Origin: a virus
Taxonomy: Duplodnaviria; Caudoviricetes
Length of the DNA: 30,113 nt
IMG/VR virus record: IMGVR_UViG_3300032303_001407
Location: 1 to 30,113 of that record
Direction: 5' to 3' (one strand)
Shown: in pieces, positions 215 to 29,198 of the stretch
Layout: each line of letters begins with the position of its first letter
How positions within the stretch are numbered: position 1 is the stretch's first letter
Notes under the pieces: generated by a model
The model's input: the letters and a program-made list of their open reading frames with translations, nothing else
Database searches by the model: none
What the model was told of the DNA's origin: nothing
Position numbers and translations under genes: made by a program

Positions 215-230
215 CTAAATAACGAAACAG

Positions 231-430
231 GGGCAGTTTAGAGAGTGTTCTCGCCCAATGTCGTAAGTAAGAACTCTCACAATTTTCTCCCCTGCGTTCC
301 ACGCTATTTATAGCAAGAGTCCCCTGGGGGGATTTCGCCAGGCTGATTAGGGCGATAATAGAAATACTATAGAGCAGGGGTACTGCAGCCCCAAAGAAGC
401 AGACATCCTGAGCAGGATCCAAAAAGGCTC
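231..430. ncRNA. Structured intergenic region containing several H-type pseudoknots
   Basis: GGGG-TACTGCAG-CCCC-AAAGAA-GCAG (377-402,+); ATC-CTGAGCAG-GAT-CCAAAAAG-GCTC (405-430,+); long-loop variant on - strand at 231-278. Confidence 0.5.
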
Positions 431-443
431 CCCGCAAGGGTCC

Positions 444-473
444 TTGACAATTGTCAGTGGTACCTAGTACAAT
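444..473 (+). promoter_or_regulatory. Sigma70-like early promoter with TGTCAG spacer element
   Basis: TTGACA 444-449, 18 bp spacer, TACAAT 468-473; TGTCAG at 452. Confidence 0.65.
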
Positions 474-504: not shown

Positions 505-930
505 ATGGACCAGAATACAATATACCCAACAGTCATAAATGCAACAGAAGATTTTCTTAAGTCAGAAATTGCAAAGAAAGATGAACGTATTGCTCAACTT
601 GAAGAGCACATTCAAAAAGTAACTCAGCGCTCATATGCGGATTCTGCAGACCGTAACCGTCTAACAGAAGCAATGCAAGAATGGACACTTGAAGCGTTGG
701 CCCAAGGTTCAATTAATGAAACAGAAGCAGAAGAAATTGCAGAAATTGTTGGCTTTGATTTAACAAAAGAATTTGAAGTTGAAGTCACAGTTATGTATTC
801 AGTCACCGTTAATGCACGTGACGAAGAGTCTGCACAGAATGCAATTCATGATATCGATTTTGATACCGTTGATTACAACAGTGATTCAATTGCTTATCTA
901 TCATCTTCAATTGATAGAGTAGATTTTTAG
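505..930 (+). CDS. Hypothetical phage protein (acidic, coiled-coil N-terminus)
   Basis: ORF; ATG 505 follows AGAAAGAGG SD and lies downstream of the promoter. Confidence 0.8.
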   Translation: MDQNTIYPTVINATEDFLKSEIAKKDERIAQLEEHIQKVTQRSYADSADRNRLTEAMQEWTLEALAQGSINETEAEEIAEIVGFDLTKEFEVEVTVMYSVTVNARDEESAQNAIHDIDFDTVDYNSDSIAYLSSSIDRVDF

Positions 931-946
931 TAGGGGGCTACTAAAT

Positions 947-1006
947 AGACATGTCGGATGTCTCTAAACTAGGCAAGGGACCTAAGCACGTCCACGTAAA
1001 CTGCTT
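947..1006 (+). ncRNA. Tandem small pseudoknot motifs
   Basis: GGAC-CTAAGCAC-GTCC-ACGTAAAC-TGCTT (978-1006) preceded by a degenerate copy (947-975) and a TTTAGTAG/CTACTAAA hairpin. Confidence 0.6.
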
Positions 1007-1117: not shown

Positions 1118-1146
1118 TTGCATATGTCAGCCCAGACTGCTACACT
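1118..1146 (+). promoter_or_regulatory. Sigma70-like promoter with TGTCAG spacer element
   Basis: TTGCAT-17bp-TACACT; TGTCAG at 1125, same offset from the -10 as in the 444 promoter. Confidence 0.6.
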
Positions 1147-1177: not shown

Positions 1178-2200
1178 GTGGCTCACGACTTAGAAACACA
1201 AAACGGCGTTGCATCTTTTGCATCATTCCGTGAACCTGCTTGGCACGGATTGGGAACAGTCTTCACCGAGGAAAAAACAACATCGGAAATGCTTTCATTA
1301 GCAAATCTTAATAATTGGAATGTTCGCTTAGAGGATTTGGAAACCCCTACACATTTAACAAGCGACAAGAATTACCAATATGTATTGCGAACAAATCCTA
1401 CCGATAACTCTCAGACCGACATTCTTGGTGTCGTTGGTGAGCGCTATCACGTTCTGCAGAATGAAGATTTATTCTCATTCGGTGATAACATTCTTGACGG
1501 TGGTGGTCGTTGGGAAACTGCTGGTTCAATTAAGGGTGGTCGTGTTGTGTTCGGTGCTTTAGCACTAGAGCGTGAAACAATTCTTGACCCTAATGGTGTA
1601 AGCGATAAGGTAAAAACTTATTTGCTCATCAACACATCTCACGATGGTTCTATCGCTATTCAAGCAAGTATCACACCCGTTCGTGTTGTATGCGCTAACA
1701 CTCTTAACCTTGCTCTCGGTGGCGTAGGTCGTAAGAAGAATAAGGGAATCAAGCAATCATTCAAGATTCGCCACACACAAACCGCTAATGGTAAAGTTCA
1801 AATTGCTCGTGAGACTCTTGGTCTTGCTAACGCATACATGGACGAATTTGATATTATGGCAAAAGCCATGATTGAAAAGGAAGTCAATGCGATTGATTTC
1901 AACAAAATCATTCTTGCTGCTTATCCTAAGCCTGAAAAAGATGCTAAGGGTGCTTTCAAGAAATGGGAAAACAAGGTAGATGTCATCAACGATATTTACA
2001 CTGGTGAATTTAATGGAATGATTGCGGGTAATGCGTGGGGTGCGTTCAATGCACTAACTGAGCGCCTTGACTGGTATCGTTCTGCTCGTGGTGGTTCTAA
2101 CGAATCCATTCTCGCATCAGCATCAGGATTTGACCCTGCAATTAACGCAGAAAAAAATCGTTTGCTAAAAGTTGTGCAAGGCGTAATGTCTCTCGCATAA
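1178..2200 (+). CDS. DUF932 family phage/plasmid protein
   Basis: Motifs REPAWHGLG, WETAGS, NTSHDGS, TPVRVVCANTL, IRHT; GTG start after AAGGA SD. Confidence 0.9.
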   Translation: MAHDLETQNGVASFASFREPAWHGLGTVFTEEKTTSEMLSLANLNNWNVRLEDLETPTHLTSDKNYQYVLRTNPTDNSQTDILGVVGERYHVLQNEDLFSFGDNILDGGGRWETAGSIKGGRVVFGALALERETILDPNGVSDKVKTYLLINTSHDGSIAIQASITPVRVVCANTLNLALGGVGRKKNKGIKQSFKIRHTQTANGKVQIARETLGLANAYMDEFDIMAKAMIEKEVNAIDFNKIILAAYPKPEKDAKGAFKKWENKVDVINDIYTGEFNGMIAGNAWGAFNALTERLDWYRSARGGSNESILASASGFDPAINAEKNRLLKVVQGVMSLA

Positions 2201-2205
2201 TAAAA

Positions 2206-2233
2206 AATTCCTGAGCAAGAATTAAAACTGCTC
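2206..2233 (+). ncRNA. Small H-type pseudoknot motif
   Basis: AATTC-CTGAGCAA-GAATT-AAAAC-TGCTC, between the DUF932 stop and tRNA-Asp. Confidence 0.65.
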
Positions 2234-2238
2234 CGCAT

Positions 2239-2312
2239 GGTCCGTTAGAATAGTTGGTTAGTTCGCCACCCTGTCACGGTGGAGGTCACGGGTTCAAGTC
2301 CCGTACGGATCG
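2239..2312 (+). tRNA. tRNA-Asp(GTC)
   Basis: Acceptor GGTCCGT/ACGGATC, anticodon arm CCACC-CTGTCAC-GGTGG, GGTTCAAGTCC T arm. Confidence 0.95.
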
Positions 2313-2355
2313 CAATTAAATAAATATGCATCGCAGTGCATAAACGGGCCAGCCA

Positions 2356-13503: not shown

Positions 13504-13574
13504 GGGCCTAAAGCATTAAAGTGATGCTCAGGACTTTTAATCCTGAGAAGAAGGAGCGTTACCTTCTAGGCCTA
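13504..13574 (+). tRNA. tRNA-Lys(TTT), non-canonical D and T loops
   Basis: GGGCCTA/TAGGCCT; CAGGA-CTTTTAA-TCCTG; T arm GAAGG-AGCGTTA-CCTTC. Confidence 0.8.
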
Positions 13575-15766: not shown

Positions 15767-15805
15767 GATATGAGTATACCATATTTCTTAGTGTATAATA
15801 AAATA

Positions 15806-16357
15806 ATGAATATAACTAAACCATATAATAATGATATTTTTATAGTTGAAGATTTTTTGACAGAACAAGAGGTAATAATCCTTGAAAATCTTATTAAAAA
15901 ATCTAAAAAAGAATATATTAATGATAGTATAACTAATGATTATTTTAAAGGGAAATTAATTAAATTTAATTCAGATCAATCCTTGGGGGATGAAGTAACC
16001 TCAATAAATGCAAAAATATATCAAAGAGCAATATCTTGCATTGAGGGAATAACTAACAATAAATATGAGTATACCCATATTGATTCTATAATAAAAACAG
16101 GTGGTTCTGGAATGCCACCACATTCTGATGACAGCCCATTAGTAGAAGATTTAACAACAGATTATGGTGTTGTAATATATTTAAATGAAAACTATACTGG
16201 TGGAGAAATATATTATCCTAATCTAAATATAGAGTTTAAGCCCAAAAGAAAAAGTTTAATCATTCATCCAGGAAATGTTGAATATTCTCACGGTGTTAAA
16301 GATGTAATAAATGGAGAAAGATACTGTATTACATTCTTTGCTTTTACAAGAAAATAA
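15806..16357 (+). CDS. 2OG-Fe(II) oxygenase
   Basis: HSD, VIYLNENYTGGEIYYP, HGVKDV..GERY; leaderless start. Confidence 0.88.
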   Translation: MNITKPYNNDIFIVEDFLTEQEVIILENLIKKSKKEYINDSITNDYFKGKLIKFNSDQSLGDEVTSINAKIYQRAISCIEGITNNKYEYTHIDSIIKTGGSGMPPHSDDSPLVEDLTTDYGVVIYLNENYTGGEIYYPNLNIEFKPKRKSLIIHPGNVEYSHGVKDVINGERYCITFFAFTRK

Positions 16358-16600
16358 GCAGTTTATAGACGACTGCTCAGGTCTATTAGCCACGAAGATT
16401 CAACTCCTGCCAACCCTCCACTCATAGGAGCATCCGTTATTAAAACTTTCTTAAGGTCTTAAGCGGAATAATACTTATTATACTATAATTTTAATAGGCA
16501 GTTTTTTACAGTCATGCCTAGGACTATACCAGTTTTTATTGTCGCTGTCTCCCCCGACAAAATCTGCGACTCCTCAGTGACGAGGTGCAGAAATATATTG
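16356..16600 (-). ncRNA. Structured 3' region of hsp20 with pseudoknot motifs and a candidate small RNA
   Basis: AGTC-CTAGGCAT-GACT-GTAAAAAAC-TGCCTA (16525-16495); TAGAC-CTGAGCAGTC-GTCTA-TAAAC-TGCTT (16385-16356); several further stems. Confidence 0.6.
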
Positions 16601-16602
16601 TA

Positions 16603-17007
16603 CTACTGAATTTCAATAGTTTTTGGCAGTTTGTCTTCTGGAATCTGTTTTTCAAGTTTAATATCCAAGATACCATCCTTAAATTCAGCCCCAACTACTT
16701 CAACAAACTCAGGAAGAGTGAAGATATCTGTAAACTTACGAGCAGCAATGCCCTTATGTAGATACTCTGCACCCTCTGGTAATTCAGCATCCTGTTTTTC
16801 GCCCTTAATTGTAAGTTTGCGATTATCTAGCAATACTGAAACATCATCCTTAGAGAACCCAGCCAAAGCAAATGAAAGAATATATTCTTTGTCATTTAGT
16901 TTGACTTGATTATAAGGTGGATAGTTTGTTGTTGTTGTTACCTTCTGAAAATTTGAGAAGGTATTAAAAAATGGATCATTAAAAAGATCCAGTGCTGTTT
17001 TTACCAT
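16603..17007 (-). CDS. Hsp20/IbpA-like small heat-shock protein
   Basis: NYPPYN, ALAGF, YLHKGIAARKF, A.FKDGIL.I.L. Confidence 0.95.
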   Translation of the reverse strand: MVKTALDLFNDPFFNTFSNFQKVTTTTNYPPYNQVKLNDKEYILSFALAGFSKDDVSVLLDNRKLTIKGEKQDAELPEGAEYLHKGIAARKFTDIFTLPEFVEVVGAEFKDGILDIKLEKQIPEDKLPKTIEIQ

Positions 17008-26844: not shown

Positions 26845-27072
26845 TTAGTCCTCCTTTCTTAGCGGGATTGTGATAAGCCATATAACTGTGGTTGCAAGCA
26901 CTGCAATACCAACAATGTCTCTTGCTGATCCCGTCAAAGTTAACCATGCAATAAAGAAGCCAAGGAGGGTAAATGCCTGTGCAATTAATTCCATTCCTGC
27001 ATCTCTAAACCATTTAACTAATCCCTTTAGCATTTTGCCTACTAGGTTGATGGCTTTATTGATTATTTTCAT
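26845..27072 (-). CDS. Membrane protein (two TM segments)
   Basis: AGGAGG SD; ATGA overlap. Confidence 0.7.
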   Translation of the reverse strand: MKIINKAINLVGKMLKGLVKWFRDAGMELIAQAFTLLGFFIAWLTLTGSARDIVGIAVLATTVIWLITIPLRKED

Positions 27073-29198
27073 TTGTTCCTCCTTATCATTGCCCCTGCAA
27101 TTTGTGATGCAATGACCACTGGGACAATTACTTCTTGTGCTTTTTCTCTCTGATCATCTGTCATATCCATACCTAACTCAGAGAAATTAGATAACAATTC
27201 TATTGGGTCAACCGAAAACACTGCTCCAAGCGGATCTGCTAAGAATGCTTCTGTTTGTACTTCTGTTGTTGCATCTGCTAATGTAAATGGCATCGGTGTG
27301 TCTCCTGCATCCCCTGCTCTTTCTGCGAACTCAACAAATGCTGATGCTACTGCAGGATCTGACTTCATTGCCTCTGCCACCTTTGCAACTTCTGCTGCAG
27401 AAATACCAAGGTTTTTTGCAACCTCTGATTTGGCTTCTTGCGTTAAAGACTTAAGTGTTTGACTTACTGCTGCTGTCTGTTCTACAGAAAGTTTAACTAA
27501 TTTGTTATCCCTGCTTGTAAGGTTTGCAATAATGCCAGATAAATCTTCTGCATTTCCTGTACCCTTTTGTGGGATCAATGCTGCTAACTCTGCATCCTTT
27601 ATAACTGGATCAATATTTTCTGCTGGTTTAAAGTCTGGTCTTGGTAATGGTTTTGTCTCAGGTGGCTCTGGAGTAGGCTCTGGCTTTGGTTGAGGGCTTG
27701 GGGTGGGTGTAGGCTTAGGCTCTTCTGGTTTTGGCTTATCAGTAGGCTCTGGCTTTGGCTTGTCTGTTGGTTCTGGTTTAGGTCCTGGCTCTGTAGGCTT
27801 TGGTCCTGGCTGTGTAGGCTTTGGTCCTGGTTCTTCTGTAGCAGTATTGTTAGTTGGCTTTGGTTCTGGCTTCTCTGTTGGTGGTGCGGAGGGCTTTGGC
27901 TTTTCTGGTTCAACAGTTGGCTTTGGGGAAGGTTCTGGTTTTGGTTGATTTGCTGCAGCGTTTGCTGCTGCTTGAGCAATTGCTCTTTGAATTTCTCTTT
28001 GTGACTGCTCATAATAGTAACGCCATGCGTCATCAATTGCACTGTTAACATCAAGTATTGCGTTATTAAAATTAGATATAGAATTATTTTTTTCAGATAA
28101 AGCATCTTCTGTATCATTAACAGCATTTTCATACTCAGATGTTTTATTAGTTAACTCTTGACTATATGAATTTAATGTTGCAACCTCTTGATTATAAATA
28201 TTTAATTTATCATTATATTCTTGCTGTGCTACATTCTTTAGAATTAATGCTGATTGATAATCTGCAGTCTGTGTTGCACTTGCTCCAGACCCAGAAGAAA
28301 ATGTATTTAAATTACAACTAAAGTTTTGTCCCCATACTCTTGGGCTTCCAGAATAATCACACCCTGCACCAGTCCATCCTCCAGGGATAGCCCAACCAAG
28401 ATGATAAGATCCTGGTCCTCCACCGTTGTACCACCAAATCTCTACATTTAATGCTTTCTCTTCACTGAAATCGTATGTCCGTGAATATGCACTCCATGTT
28501 GTTCCCTGCTCCCGCCAATTGTTTATTGCTAACTCTCCATTGATATACATTCTAAAACCATCATCTGTATATCCTGCAAAATATGTTGATGTAAACCATG
28601 AAGGAACTGTTATTTTGCCAGTAAATTTAACAATAAAATTCTGATACCGATTTCCGCAAACTGGTAGTTGCATATAGTTTGAATTCCAGGTACCACTGCA
28701 CAGCAATTGATCTGTGGCTGCTTGTCCATTAACTCTAATTAAACTGTAGACATCATATCTTAAACCAGAACCATCTGCGCCACTCAATGCTTCCTGGGCA
28801 GTTGATAGATTAATGTTGGCTAAATCAAGAGCATCTTTAGCATTATTCTTATTTGTTAGGGCAGTGGCTACTATTGCTGTCTGACCATCTACATTAGACT
28901 GAGCAAGATCTTTTGCTTCCAGTGCTAGGTCTTCTGCATCAACTGCATCATCATAATTTTTAATTCCTAGGTCTCTGACATCCCGTAGATTTTTAGCATA
29001 CATAAACTTATTCTCTGCTATATCAATTAGGTTGATTAGACCATCTTTGTAGTCTAATTTATCCACTGCGCTATTAAGGTTTTCAATTTGTTTTGCTGCT
29101 ACTGTTAAGGAATCGTCAGAGTGAGCATCTTGTGGGGATATTAATAGCCATCCAAAAGCCAATATTGACGCTATTATTGTACGTACTAGTCTTTTAAT
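27069..29198 (-). CDS. Large exported protein: coiled coil, PA14 domain, Pro-rich linker, C-terminal hydrophobic anchor
   Basis: FTGKITVP, TDDGFRMYING, NWREQG, WWYNGGG (PA14); PEP/KP repeats; start is either ATT 29198 or TTG 29162. Confidence 0.8.
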   Translation of the reverse strand: MKRLVRTIIASILAFGWLLISPQDAHSDDSLTVAAKQIENLNSAVDKLDYKDGLINLIDIAENKFMYAKNLRDVRDLGIKNYDDAVDAEDLALEAKDLAQSNVDGQTAIVATALTNKNNAKDALDLANINLSTAQEALSGADGSGLRYDVYSLIRVNGQAATDQLLCSGTWNSNYMQLPVCGNRYQNFIVKFTGKITVPSWFTSTYFAGYTDDGFRMYINGELAINNWREQGTTWSAYSRTYDFSEEKALNVEIWWYNGGGPGSYHLGWAIPGGWTGAGCDYSGSPRVWGQNFSCNLNTFSSGSGASATQTADYQSALILKNVAQQEYNDKLNIYNQEVATLNSYSQELTNKTSEYENAVNDTEDALSEKNNSISNFNNAILDVNSAIDDAWRYYYEQSQREIQRAIAQAAANAAANQPKPEPSPKPTVEPEKPKPSAPPTEKPEPKPTNNTATEEPGPKPTQPGPKPTEPGPKPEPTDKPKPEPTDKPKPEEPKPTPTPSPQPKPEPTPEPPETKPLPRPDFKPAENIDPVIKDAELAALIPQKGTGNAEDLSGIIANLTSRDNKLVKLSVEQTAAVSQTLKSLTQEAKSEVAKNLGISAAEVAKVAEAMKSDPAVASAFVEFAERAGDAGDTPMPFTLADATTEVQTEAFLADPLGAVFSVDPIELLSNFSELGMDMTDDQREKAQEVIVPVVIASQIAGAMIRRNK

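Follow-up and report, generated by a model that had tools for sequence, protein, structure and literature searches.

A small coremin-type RNA pseudoknot, predicted from sequence, recurs behind genes of phages and bacteria

The locus

The window, by which is meant the whole stretch of DNA analysed, is a linear virus record of 30,113 bases, about 28% complete and with a G+C content of 36%. Its genes include those for WhiB, Hsp20, several 2OG-Fe(II) oxygenases, an endolysin and a DUF932 protein, alongside nine tRNAs (ARAGORN). The presence of WhiB suggests an actinobacterial host. Between 9870 and 21413 there are four or more genes for 2OG-Fe(II) oxygenases and one that is TauD-like, several of them interleaved with tRNA genes, and the minus strand at 27069-29162 encodes a protein of 697 residues with a PA14 domain and a long proline-rich repeat region.

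A preliminary description of the window had listed five copies of a small pseudoknot with two helices, P1 and P2. Four of these stand at the coordinates given, two of them extending further than described, whilst the fifth, at 405-430, is a degenerate variant. Each of the four full copies is apparent in the sequence itself and is found by a pattern descriptor and by a covariance model, R1. The canonical copy (2206..2233, plus strand) has the P1 strands AATTC and GAATT, the loop CTGAGCAA, the linker AAAAC and the P2 strands GAGCA and TGCTC. The top C of its P1, at 2210, lies 9 nt after the stop codon of the DUF932 gene (1178..2200, plus strand; PF06067, E 2e-45; phrog_1221), and the copy ends 5 nt before tRNA-Asp(GTC) (2239..2313, plus strand; ARAGORN; Rfam RF00005), as previously described. 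Of the assembled RNA contigs from relatives (share of words 0.05-0.10), which show neither strand nor transcript ends, two terminate at 2196, close to the stop codon of DUF932; this was given no weight.

A second full copy on the plus strand (978..1006) has a linker longer by 2 nt, with P1 GGAC/GTCC, the loop CTAAGCAC and TGCTT as the 3' strand of P2. Its top C lies 50 nt past the stop of an open reading frame at 505-930, and a T-rich tail follows it. Two short hairpins (928-965, plus strand) stand directly past the same stop; the first is kept in three relatives, where a knot lies directly behind it. Between this copy and the DUF932 gene the sequence reads as a promoter-like site, TTGCAT-17-TACACT with a TG extension (1118..1146, plus strand); the consensus scan lists a weaker site, 1124-1152, which overlaps it.

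The two remaining full copies are on the minus strand, downstream of the Hsp20 gene (16603..17007, minus strand; PF00011; phrog_432). The first (16495..16528) has a P1 of 7 bp, TATAGTC/GACTGTA, with the loop CTAGGCAT and TGCCTA; its top C is 80 nt past the Hsp20 stop and its 3' end lies 12 nt ahead of the -10 hexamer of a predicted small-RNA unit. The second (16355..16386) pairs ATAGAC with GTCTAT and has a junction of 3 nt (CTGAGCA-GTC), followed by AAAC and TGCTTA. It forms the 3' end of the small-RNA unit, has a T-rich tail, and abuts the stop of a converging 2OG-Fe(II) oxygenase gene on the plus strand (15770-16357). Across the four full copies P1 has 4-7 pairs and P2 has 5-6.

The degenerate variant (405..430, plus strand), read from the sequence, has a P1 of 3 bp (ATC/GAT) and the loop CTGAGCAG, and AAAAAG-GCTC replaces AAAC-TGCTC. 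The loop and the length register are kept, AAAC-U is replaced, and the R1 match is limited to the 5' part (positions 2-22; 8.1 bits, E 1.4). The same variant is kept in four related contigs. A promoter-like site, TTGACA-18-TACAAT (11 of 12 consensus positions; 444..473, plus strand), lies 13 nt past it, and is best regarded as a prediction because the region has 7 such sites against 5.1 +/- 2.3 in shuffles. A long imperfect hairpin with no Rfam match (222-300, plus strand) lies between the first gene and the variant; parts of it are conserved at the loci L066, L281 and L905 and in RNA contigs from a lake.

All five copies are therefore found at predicted 3' boundaries, being ahead of a promoter-like site, a tRNA or a converging gene, or closing a small RNA. 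The earlier claim that copies stand mostly just after stop codons holds in the window for the 2206 copy alone, the 405 and 16386 copies lying some 190-220 nt past a stop; it holds for the family, in which the median distance from stop to P1 is 9 nt among 155 viral copies.

A strict descriptor of the motif gives four matches in the window and none in 200 order-3 Markov simulations, whilst a looser one also gives four, against a simulated mean of 0.21 and maximum of 2 (order-3 Markov). R1 was trained on 90 copies from other genomes only (random draws of 45 from 87 and 45 from 120), and recovers the 2206, 16386, 16528 and 978 copies at 39.9, 30.9, 23.5 and 18.2 bits respectively (E 9e-9 to 0.0035). 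Its search of the window found no full copy beyond those four. Weak matches at 13510-13536, antisense to tRNA-Lys, and at 230-252 were rejected as lacking the full knot.

The small-RNA unit is a predicted non-coding RNA of about 115 nt (16355..16470, minus strand) with a TATAAT hexamer ahead of it at 16482-16477. In a consensus fold of 13 sequences the knot comes after three hairpins, each covarying or conserved and the middle one near-invariant. The unit occurs in about 170 viral stretches and has no match in Rfam. The 120 matches retrieved (L642-L761) comprise 71 distinct relatives, forming one homologous family, in 69 of which the knot follows directly; in several the unit comes after Hsp20, and in 53 another -10-like hexamer lies within 30 nt behind the knot. 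A reading of the unit as a micro-ORF was discarded, the candidate start codon not being kept in relatives.

Anatomy and covariation of the fold

Across the family the motif is 28-33 bases long and its pairing is that of an H-type pseudoknot. The 5' strand of P1 (3-5 bp, with C-G as the top pair) is followed by a C, the 5' strand of P2 (URRGYA), a junction base, the 3' strand of P1, the AAAC linker and the 3' strand of P2. Several unpaired positions are near-invariant. AAAC lies six bases past the top G in 329 of 355 copies, a spacing fixed by two of three source patterns and free in the first. The junction base, which is the last of the loop, is rarely G (8 of 479 copies; one of the four source patterns excluded G). 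The linker would pack on P1, making the knot hard to unwind.

The C-G top pair was set by the search patterns, and below it the three next positions of P1 pair in 342, 336 and 245 of 349 copies. With P1 unconstrained by the pattern, at least four pairs form in 103, and at least three in 126, of the 143 viral matches listed; at least three form in 111 of the 125 genome matches listed. Where P2 was left free, all four free positions are paired in 96 of 120 distinct copies; shuffling the partners 2,000 times gave 32 such copies on average and at most 45. The five strongest pairs by APC-corrected mutual information are predicted pairs in both sets of copies. In alignment A2, 93.3% of cells pair, against 75.5% in shuffles (none of 500 as high) and 25-40% in slid controls; pairs with two-sided change number 7, a value met by 201 of the 500 shuffles. 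Single-sequence folding predicts one helix at a time and is not counted as evidence. The covariation of both helices put forward in the preliminary description is thus confirmed on much larger sets, in tests made without correction for relatedness on carriers that are very diverse.

The wobble pairs are one-stranded. At one P2 pair U-G outnumbers C-A by 34 to 2, and at another G-U outnumbers A-C by 16 to 1, a bias which fixes the strand and fits an RNA. An element acting at the level of DNA, as a single-strand hairpin or a protein-binding site, would suit a motif that is multi-copy, intergenic and found in DNA phages; it is scarcely tenable given these one-strand wobbles, the sense orientation of the motif and the ribosome-sized exclusion zone before it (see below). 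The evidence supports the reading, already favoured in the preliminary description, of the motif as an RNA pseudoknot, conserved and specific to one strand, and not as a repeat in the DNA.

Occurrence and catalogue status

Pattern scans give an estimated 10,000 or so matching stretches in viral records (at least 134 loci in one of 64 parts), some 13,000 in metagenomes and some 660, from many phyla, in bacterial and archaeal genomes, all of these being counts of stored stretches, not species. Among the cultured carriers are Mycobacterium phage Labelle, Synechococcus phage S-EIVl (three copies), a Staphylococcus phage, a Streptococcus phage and the crAss-like phage cr7_1, and one Vibrio phage has a copy with no same-strand gene close upstream. 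A BLAST search of cultured phages with a window copy returned mostly chance matches and was set aside. Bacterial chromosomes carry the knot too, including behind a Cys-containing leader peptide. The original term, a phage RNA element, is apt for many phages and too narrow for the family as a whole.

No family in Rfam 15 covers the eight-base-loop knot of the window. Rfam searches left the knot unmatched in the window, in 51 bases around a canonical copy and in sets of 20, 18 and 16 carrier loci, in keeping with the novelty first proposed, and none of the Rfam ribozyme models matches the knot itself. The knot may bear some likeness to the Pistol ribozyme and to a luteovirus pseudoknot. Literature searches brought up no report of the motif in bacteria or phages, although Weinberg 2017 and Fremin 2023 may list it as an anonymous candidate; strings of the motif are absent from the Weinberg 2010 supplements and from the available part of the Fremin 2023 supplement. 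On this comparative evidence the knot is a real, widespread and uncatalogued RNA pseudoknot.

Position relative to stop codons

Open reading frames around the knots were called with a simple script of our own. The upstream frame is on the motif strand at 155 of 209 viral loci and on the opposite strand at 19, so that orientation relative to genes is far from random, as had been anticipated. The downstream frame is on the motif strand at 131 of the loci and opposite at 34; 29 loci were called inside a frame.

Measured from the last base of the stop codon, the position of the top C of P1 shows a sharp floor. Among 196 viral loci, 34 lie at 8 nt, one at 7 and none at 2-6, and the same floor is repeated in the metagenome (103) and genome (78) sets. 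When the upstream proteins of 396 loci are grouped into 263 clusters, 8-9 clusters lie at 1 nt or less, none at 2-6, 2-4 at 7, 39-45 at 8 and about 82 beyond 25, with a pile-up at 8-9 nt. Stop triplets other than gene ends are freely present 2-6 nt before the top C. Counted up to the first base that pairs, the gap behind the stop is in most cases 4-6 nt or larger, being 3 nt in 2, 4 in 18, 5 in 44 and 6 in 49 of the 396 loci. In annotated phages the distance from stop to top C is 9 nt (Labelle) and 8 nt (S-EIVl). Cousins of the knot with six-base loops share the floor, none of 71 lying at 2-6 nt. By contrast, spacing to the downstream start is loose, from 10 to 59 nt, with the start at least 16 nt from the knot in 135 of 141 cases.

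The ribosomal helicase acts near a point nine nucleotides on from the first base of the stop codon. RNA outside the entry tunnel is taken to begin at the same +9 position (PMC7518266), and the pile-up at 8-9 nt is where the edge of a terminating ribosome would lie. Presumably the knot forms on mRNA under translation, at a position where an elongating ribosome has no need to melt it.

A gap of 5-6 nt between the stop and the first pair also resembles the spacers of recoding signals. Coremin knots, discussed below, stimulate frameshifting (PMC10321173), and the knot might on these grounds promote stop read-through or -1 frameshifting. Such a role is hardly credible. The stops are mostly UAA (128 of 196; 80 of 103 at 5-14 nt), the frame beyond the stop closes after a median of 8 codons, and a slippery heptamer precedes 24 of 479 copies against a background of 3%.

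Neighbouring features

The placement of window copies at gene 3' boundaries and before tRNAs is general across the family, as the preliminary description would lead one to expect. A tRNA starts within 60 nt downstream of 22 of 355 and 6 of 139 copies, 26 of these 28 within 12 nt, against an upstream tRNA in 2 of 355 and 1 of 139; the cases come from a handful of related contexts, about half from one DUF932/tRNA-Asp lineage. Type III hammerheads begin 0-1 nt past the knot at L172 (twice) and L032, and would cut 5 nt past it. At L143 a type III hammerhead behind the knot is seen by pattern only, without Rfam confirmation. The DUF2800 RNA starts within a few bases behind five copies (L053, L152, L153, L212 and L380), and it and the knot may be a single element.

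A T-tract lies directly behind 33 of 238 viral copies (background 1.9%), 14 of 117 genome copies and 21 of 139 metagenome copies, or about 14%. Terminator-like hairpins precede 11 of 360 viral and metagenome copies, 3 of 111 genome copies and 20 of 100 copies with six-base loops, and one of the standard kind lies past the knot in 9 of 111 genome copies. It is distinctly improbable that the knot is itself an intrinsic terminator or pause signal in which P2 replaces the terminator hairpin. The T-tracts fit such a signal, as do the T-rich tails of the 978 and 16386 copies, which precede a promoter-like site or a converging gene. Against this, some 86% of copies are without a T-tract, many knots run into a tRNA, a ribozyme or a ribosome-binding site that needs co-transcription, and a normal terminator-like hairpin sometimes stands just before or after the knot.

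Promoter position across the family was tried as a means of telling the readings apart and abandoned: -35/-10 matches number 23 at 25-149 nt downstream and 14 in the 150 nt upstream, and extended -10 sites at 348 loci number 23 downstream and 9 upstream, without discrimination.

An operator for an RNA-binding protein of phage or host, like the small pseudoknots that serve as translational operators, would account for the near-invariant unpaired positions, the avoidance of G at the junction, the subset of copies in leaders of scaffold genes and the several copies per genome, as in S-EIVl. This explanation is nonetheless quite unlikely. The 263 protein clusters share no common neighbour gene, the hosts belong to many phyla, a ribosome-binding site is rarely overlapped, and the invariant bases are those needed for coremin's own tertiary fold (PMC6546385).

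Comparison with known RNAs

In its anatomy the knot has as its closest relative the coremin motif, or xrRNA-C, of beny-, cucumo- and other eukaryotic RNA viruses, a likeness which the preliminary description does not name, whilst being found itself in phages and bacteria. Both have a first helix of 3-5 bp closed by C-G, a C as the first and an A as the next-to-last base of the loop, and exactly six bases followed by AAAC-U; a coremin sequence with this six-base register is printed in PMC10520033. For coremin, as in the knot, a pseudoknot between loop and spacer has been proposed (PMC6546385, PMC10520033). However, the coremin loop consensus is YGAD or YGNNAD, whereas the window copies read CURRGCAH with U at position 2, and the eight-base loop of the family (CURRGYAH) and its covarying Watson-Crick P2 of 5-6 bp set it apart. 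Resistance of coremin to Xrn1 requires the AAA, the CU, the closing C-G pair and a second hairpin, hp2 (PMC6546385). A hairpin of this type is not enriched behind the knot (it follows 96 of 478 copies, compared with 251 of 958 in the background and 83 of 478 after shuffling), and none is clear in the four full window copies. The knot is therefore coremin-type by anatomy, rather than a member by published criteria, because its loop departs from the consensus and the second hairpin is lacking. As predicted from its sequence, it is a new, prokaryotic variant of the coremin fold.

Forms closer to the published loop are found at sites of like kind. When the loop length was left free, a scan listed 47 six-base loops among 116 distinct matches, 40 of the 47 being YGNNAD, and YGNNAD copies are estimated at about 310 viral stretches. 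The loop CGAAAU, which stalled scanning ribosomes in vitro (PMC10520033), is present in carrier contigs. A weak match to the GIR1 branching ribozyme (L485:328-485; 29 bits, E 0.002) ends just ahead of a six-base-loop knot.

The xrRNA-WCC class shares with the knot a Watson-Crick pseudoknot stem between loop and spacer, but needs G as the first loop base and a G8-C18 pair (PMC10321173); in the knot the first loop base is C, which was fixed by the pattern and is present in all window copies, and the last is G in no more than the 8 of 479 copies given above. Such Watson-Crick variants of coremin came out of an E. coli screen that selected for frameshifting (PMC10321173).

GP20-b (RF03003) precedes phage scaffold genes, as does a subset of knots, though no copy in the window. 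In phage head modules a terminator-like hairpin is followed by the knot and then the scaffold gene, most of these downstream frames having been identified by visual inspection; loops of both lengths, six and eight bases, alternate at this scaffold-leader site. The Rfam model of GP20-b matches six-base-loop cousins at three loci (L497, L500 and L490), starting at the knot, and also cousins with longer loops. L435 is a further locus where GP20-b overlaps a six-base-loop coremin-type knot. At its gathering score GP20-b has no match in the window, in eight-base-loop carriers or in any of four cultured phage records. It differs in having a second hairpin added and a single gene context. The 5' consensus of GP20-b can be read as the knot's pairing of loop with spacer, its 5' hairpin looking like P2, and the model may thus capture no more than part of the fold.

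The ribosome termination structures (RTS) described in PMC7518266 are stable structures that start at the edge shielded by a terminating ribosome, as does the knot, and are proposed to be translational insulators; in E. coli such structure right behind stops limits re-initiation (PMC7518266). RTS is a statistical folding signal without conserved sequence or fold, whereas the knot is defined, covarying and present also where no open reading frame is near. STAXI (RF01728; PMC2864571) is likewise a small repeated pseudoknot of mobile DNA. It is found in tandem, two to three times, its published rows are unrelated in sequence to the knot, and its model has no match in the window at E 10.

Leader peptides in bacteria

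At 29 of the 130 genome matches listed, the knot stands at the end of a short Cys-containing frame with a strong ribosome-binding site (L136, L139, L148, L178, L191 and 24 further genome loci); L528, L545 and L627 are of the same kind. The predicted peptides have 20-30 residues and a C-terminal motif, H-C-x-E/D-G-C/H, whose spacing to the knot is fixed. The last conserved Cys or His codon ends 10 nt before the top C in 29 of 36 matches, so that a ribosome with this codon in its P site would reach the knot with the same edge as a terminating one. The stop codon of the peptide usually lies inside the knot. Downstream are genes for Rrf2 and PerR regulators, efflux permeases and PrdB-like proteins. 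Neither of the two leader peptides tried had a match in NCBIfam. The conserved stretch that precedes many bacterial copies was at first taken for a twister ribozyme, wrongly: it has no Rfam match and is the peptide-coding frame.

These redox and metal genes downstream, together with the compact H-type topology and A-rich linker, might point to a riboswitch aptamer. PreQ1-I aptamers are small H-type pseudoknots with an A-rich linker. The knot has no Rfam match to preQ1-I (down to E 5-10) or to any other riboswitch, and no queuosine gene context, in agreement with the preliminary description's separation of the two; STAXI, too, falls away as a match. The knot is placed behind genes, unlike the preQ1-I riboswitch, and is tied to upstream stops, phage copies have no common downstream pathway, and no expression platform is seen. 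A ligand-binding role, of preQ1-I type or for another small molecule, is very improbable.

Proposed function

The leading reading, tentatively held at something approaching an even chance, is that the knot is a roadblock which would mark the 3' boundary of a gene and cap the upstream message against 3'-to-5' exonucleases, a 3'-exonuclease block being among the functions put forward in the preliminary description. The knot would sit just beyond the mRNA entry channel when a ribosome has the stop codon in its A site, such that elongation never has to melt it. The RNA would end or be cut just behind the knot, by RNase P, ribozyme cleavage or termination, and the knot would then be left with a tail too short for loading of a 3' exonuclease. 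Such a cap is favoured because an RNase P or hammerhead cut would leave the knot on the upstream piece. A number of observations count in its favour: the sharp tie to the upstream gene as against the loose tie to the downstream start; knots before tRNAs and hammerheads and at the end of the non-coding unit; the T-tracts; and the position of all window copies before a promoter-like site, tRNA or converging gene. Furthermore, hp2 is not enriched and some carriers show no RNase J, which falls below the cut-off in all five carrier genomes searched from Bacteroidota and Polynucleobacter (their completeness being unstated and mis-binned phage DNA possible) and is present in two of five leader-peptide genomes.

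Other evidence counts against a 3' cap. At 118 of 209 viral loci, a majority, the flanking genes run in the same direction and no cut site is known, and in the best-called subset of 95 loci convergent and divergent settings are equally frequent (7 each). Terminator-like hairpins stand behind some genome copies, as noted above, and in head modules the knot follows such a hairpin, where a 3' cap would be redundant. Leader-peptide stops mostly lie inside the knot, and the only relatives assayed block 5'-to-3' movement (PMC6546385, PMC10520033). Finally, the stop-codon floor fits any ribosome-resisting structure, whichever direction it serves, and the caveats of a simple ORF caller and of the RNase J genomes apply.

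The close rival, itself somewhat unlikely, is that the knot acts as a prokaryotic coremin, blocking RNase J and ribosomes that slide on after termination, both moving 5' to 3', and so shielding the downstream gene or structured RNA. Coremin relatives stop both Xrn1 and scanning ribosomes (PMC6546385, PMC10520033), and the knot keeps the core register of six bases to AAAC in the great majority of copies. YGNNAD copies with six-base loops share its stop floor and scaffold-leader site, and the stalling by CGAAAU (PMC10520033), the frameshift-selected variants (PMC10321173) and the RTS precedent for limiting re-initiation (PMC7518266) lie in the same direction, as does the spacing of the leader-peptide Cys/His codon, which would put a paused ribosome at the knot's edge. 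On the other hand, nothing downstream would be left to shield after RNase P or hammerhead cleavage, and some copies lie upstream of promoter-like sites or at the end of a non-coding unit. Some carriers have no detectable RNase J, and the knot lacks the hp2, loop consensus and G8-C18 pair of the assayed variants. Ordinary frameshift pseudoknots, moreover, did not stop Xrn1 (PMC10321173). The 3' cap and the 5'-to-3' block both rest on a knot that resists processive machines, and each may hold in different places.

A wider proposal is conceivable, though rather more apt to fail than to hold in full. A single roadblock fold of about 28 bases, that of coremin, would be common to phages, bacteria and eukaryotic RNA viruses. 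Prokaryotes would park it behind stops, at the entry channel of the ribosome, as a message boundary, and some bacteria would use this register a second time, to make ribosomes pause on a leader peptide that contains Cys and regulates redox and metal genes.

Implications

If these predictions are true, few structured RNA elements of phages are smaller or more widely used than this uncatalogued knot, and coremin, a nuclease-resistant RNA, has in it a first counterpart among prokaryotes. The structure of coremin was described as unsolved in 2023 (PMC10321173); an all-Watson-Crick form with hundreds of natural variants would offer a direct route to it. The exclusion zone behind stop codons would provide a natural ruler for the downstream edge of the ribosome. 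Finally, a 28-base message cap or insulator that works in many hosts would serve the design of operons.
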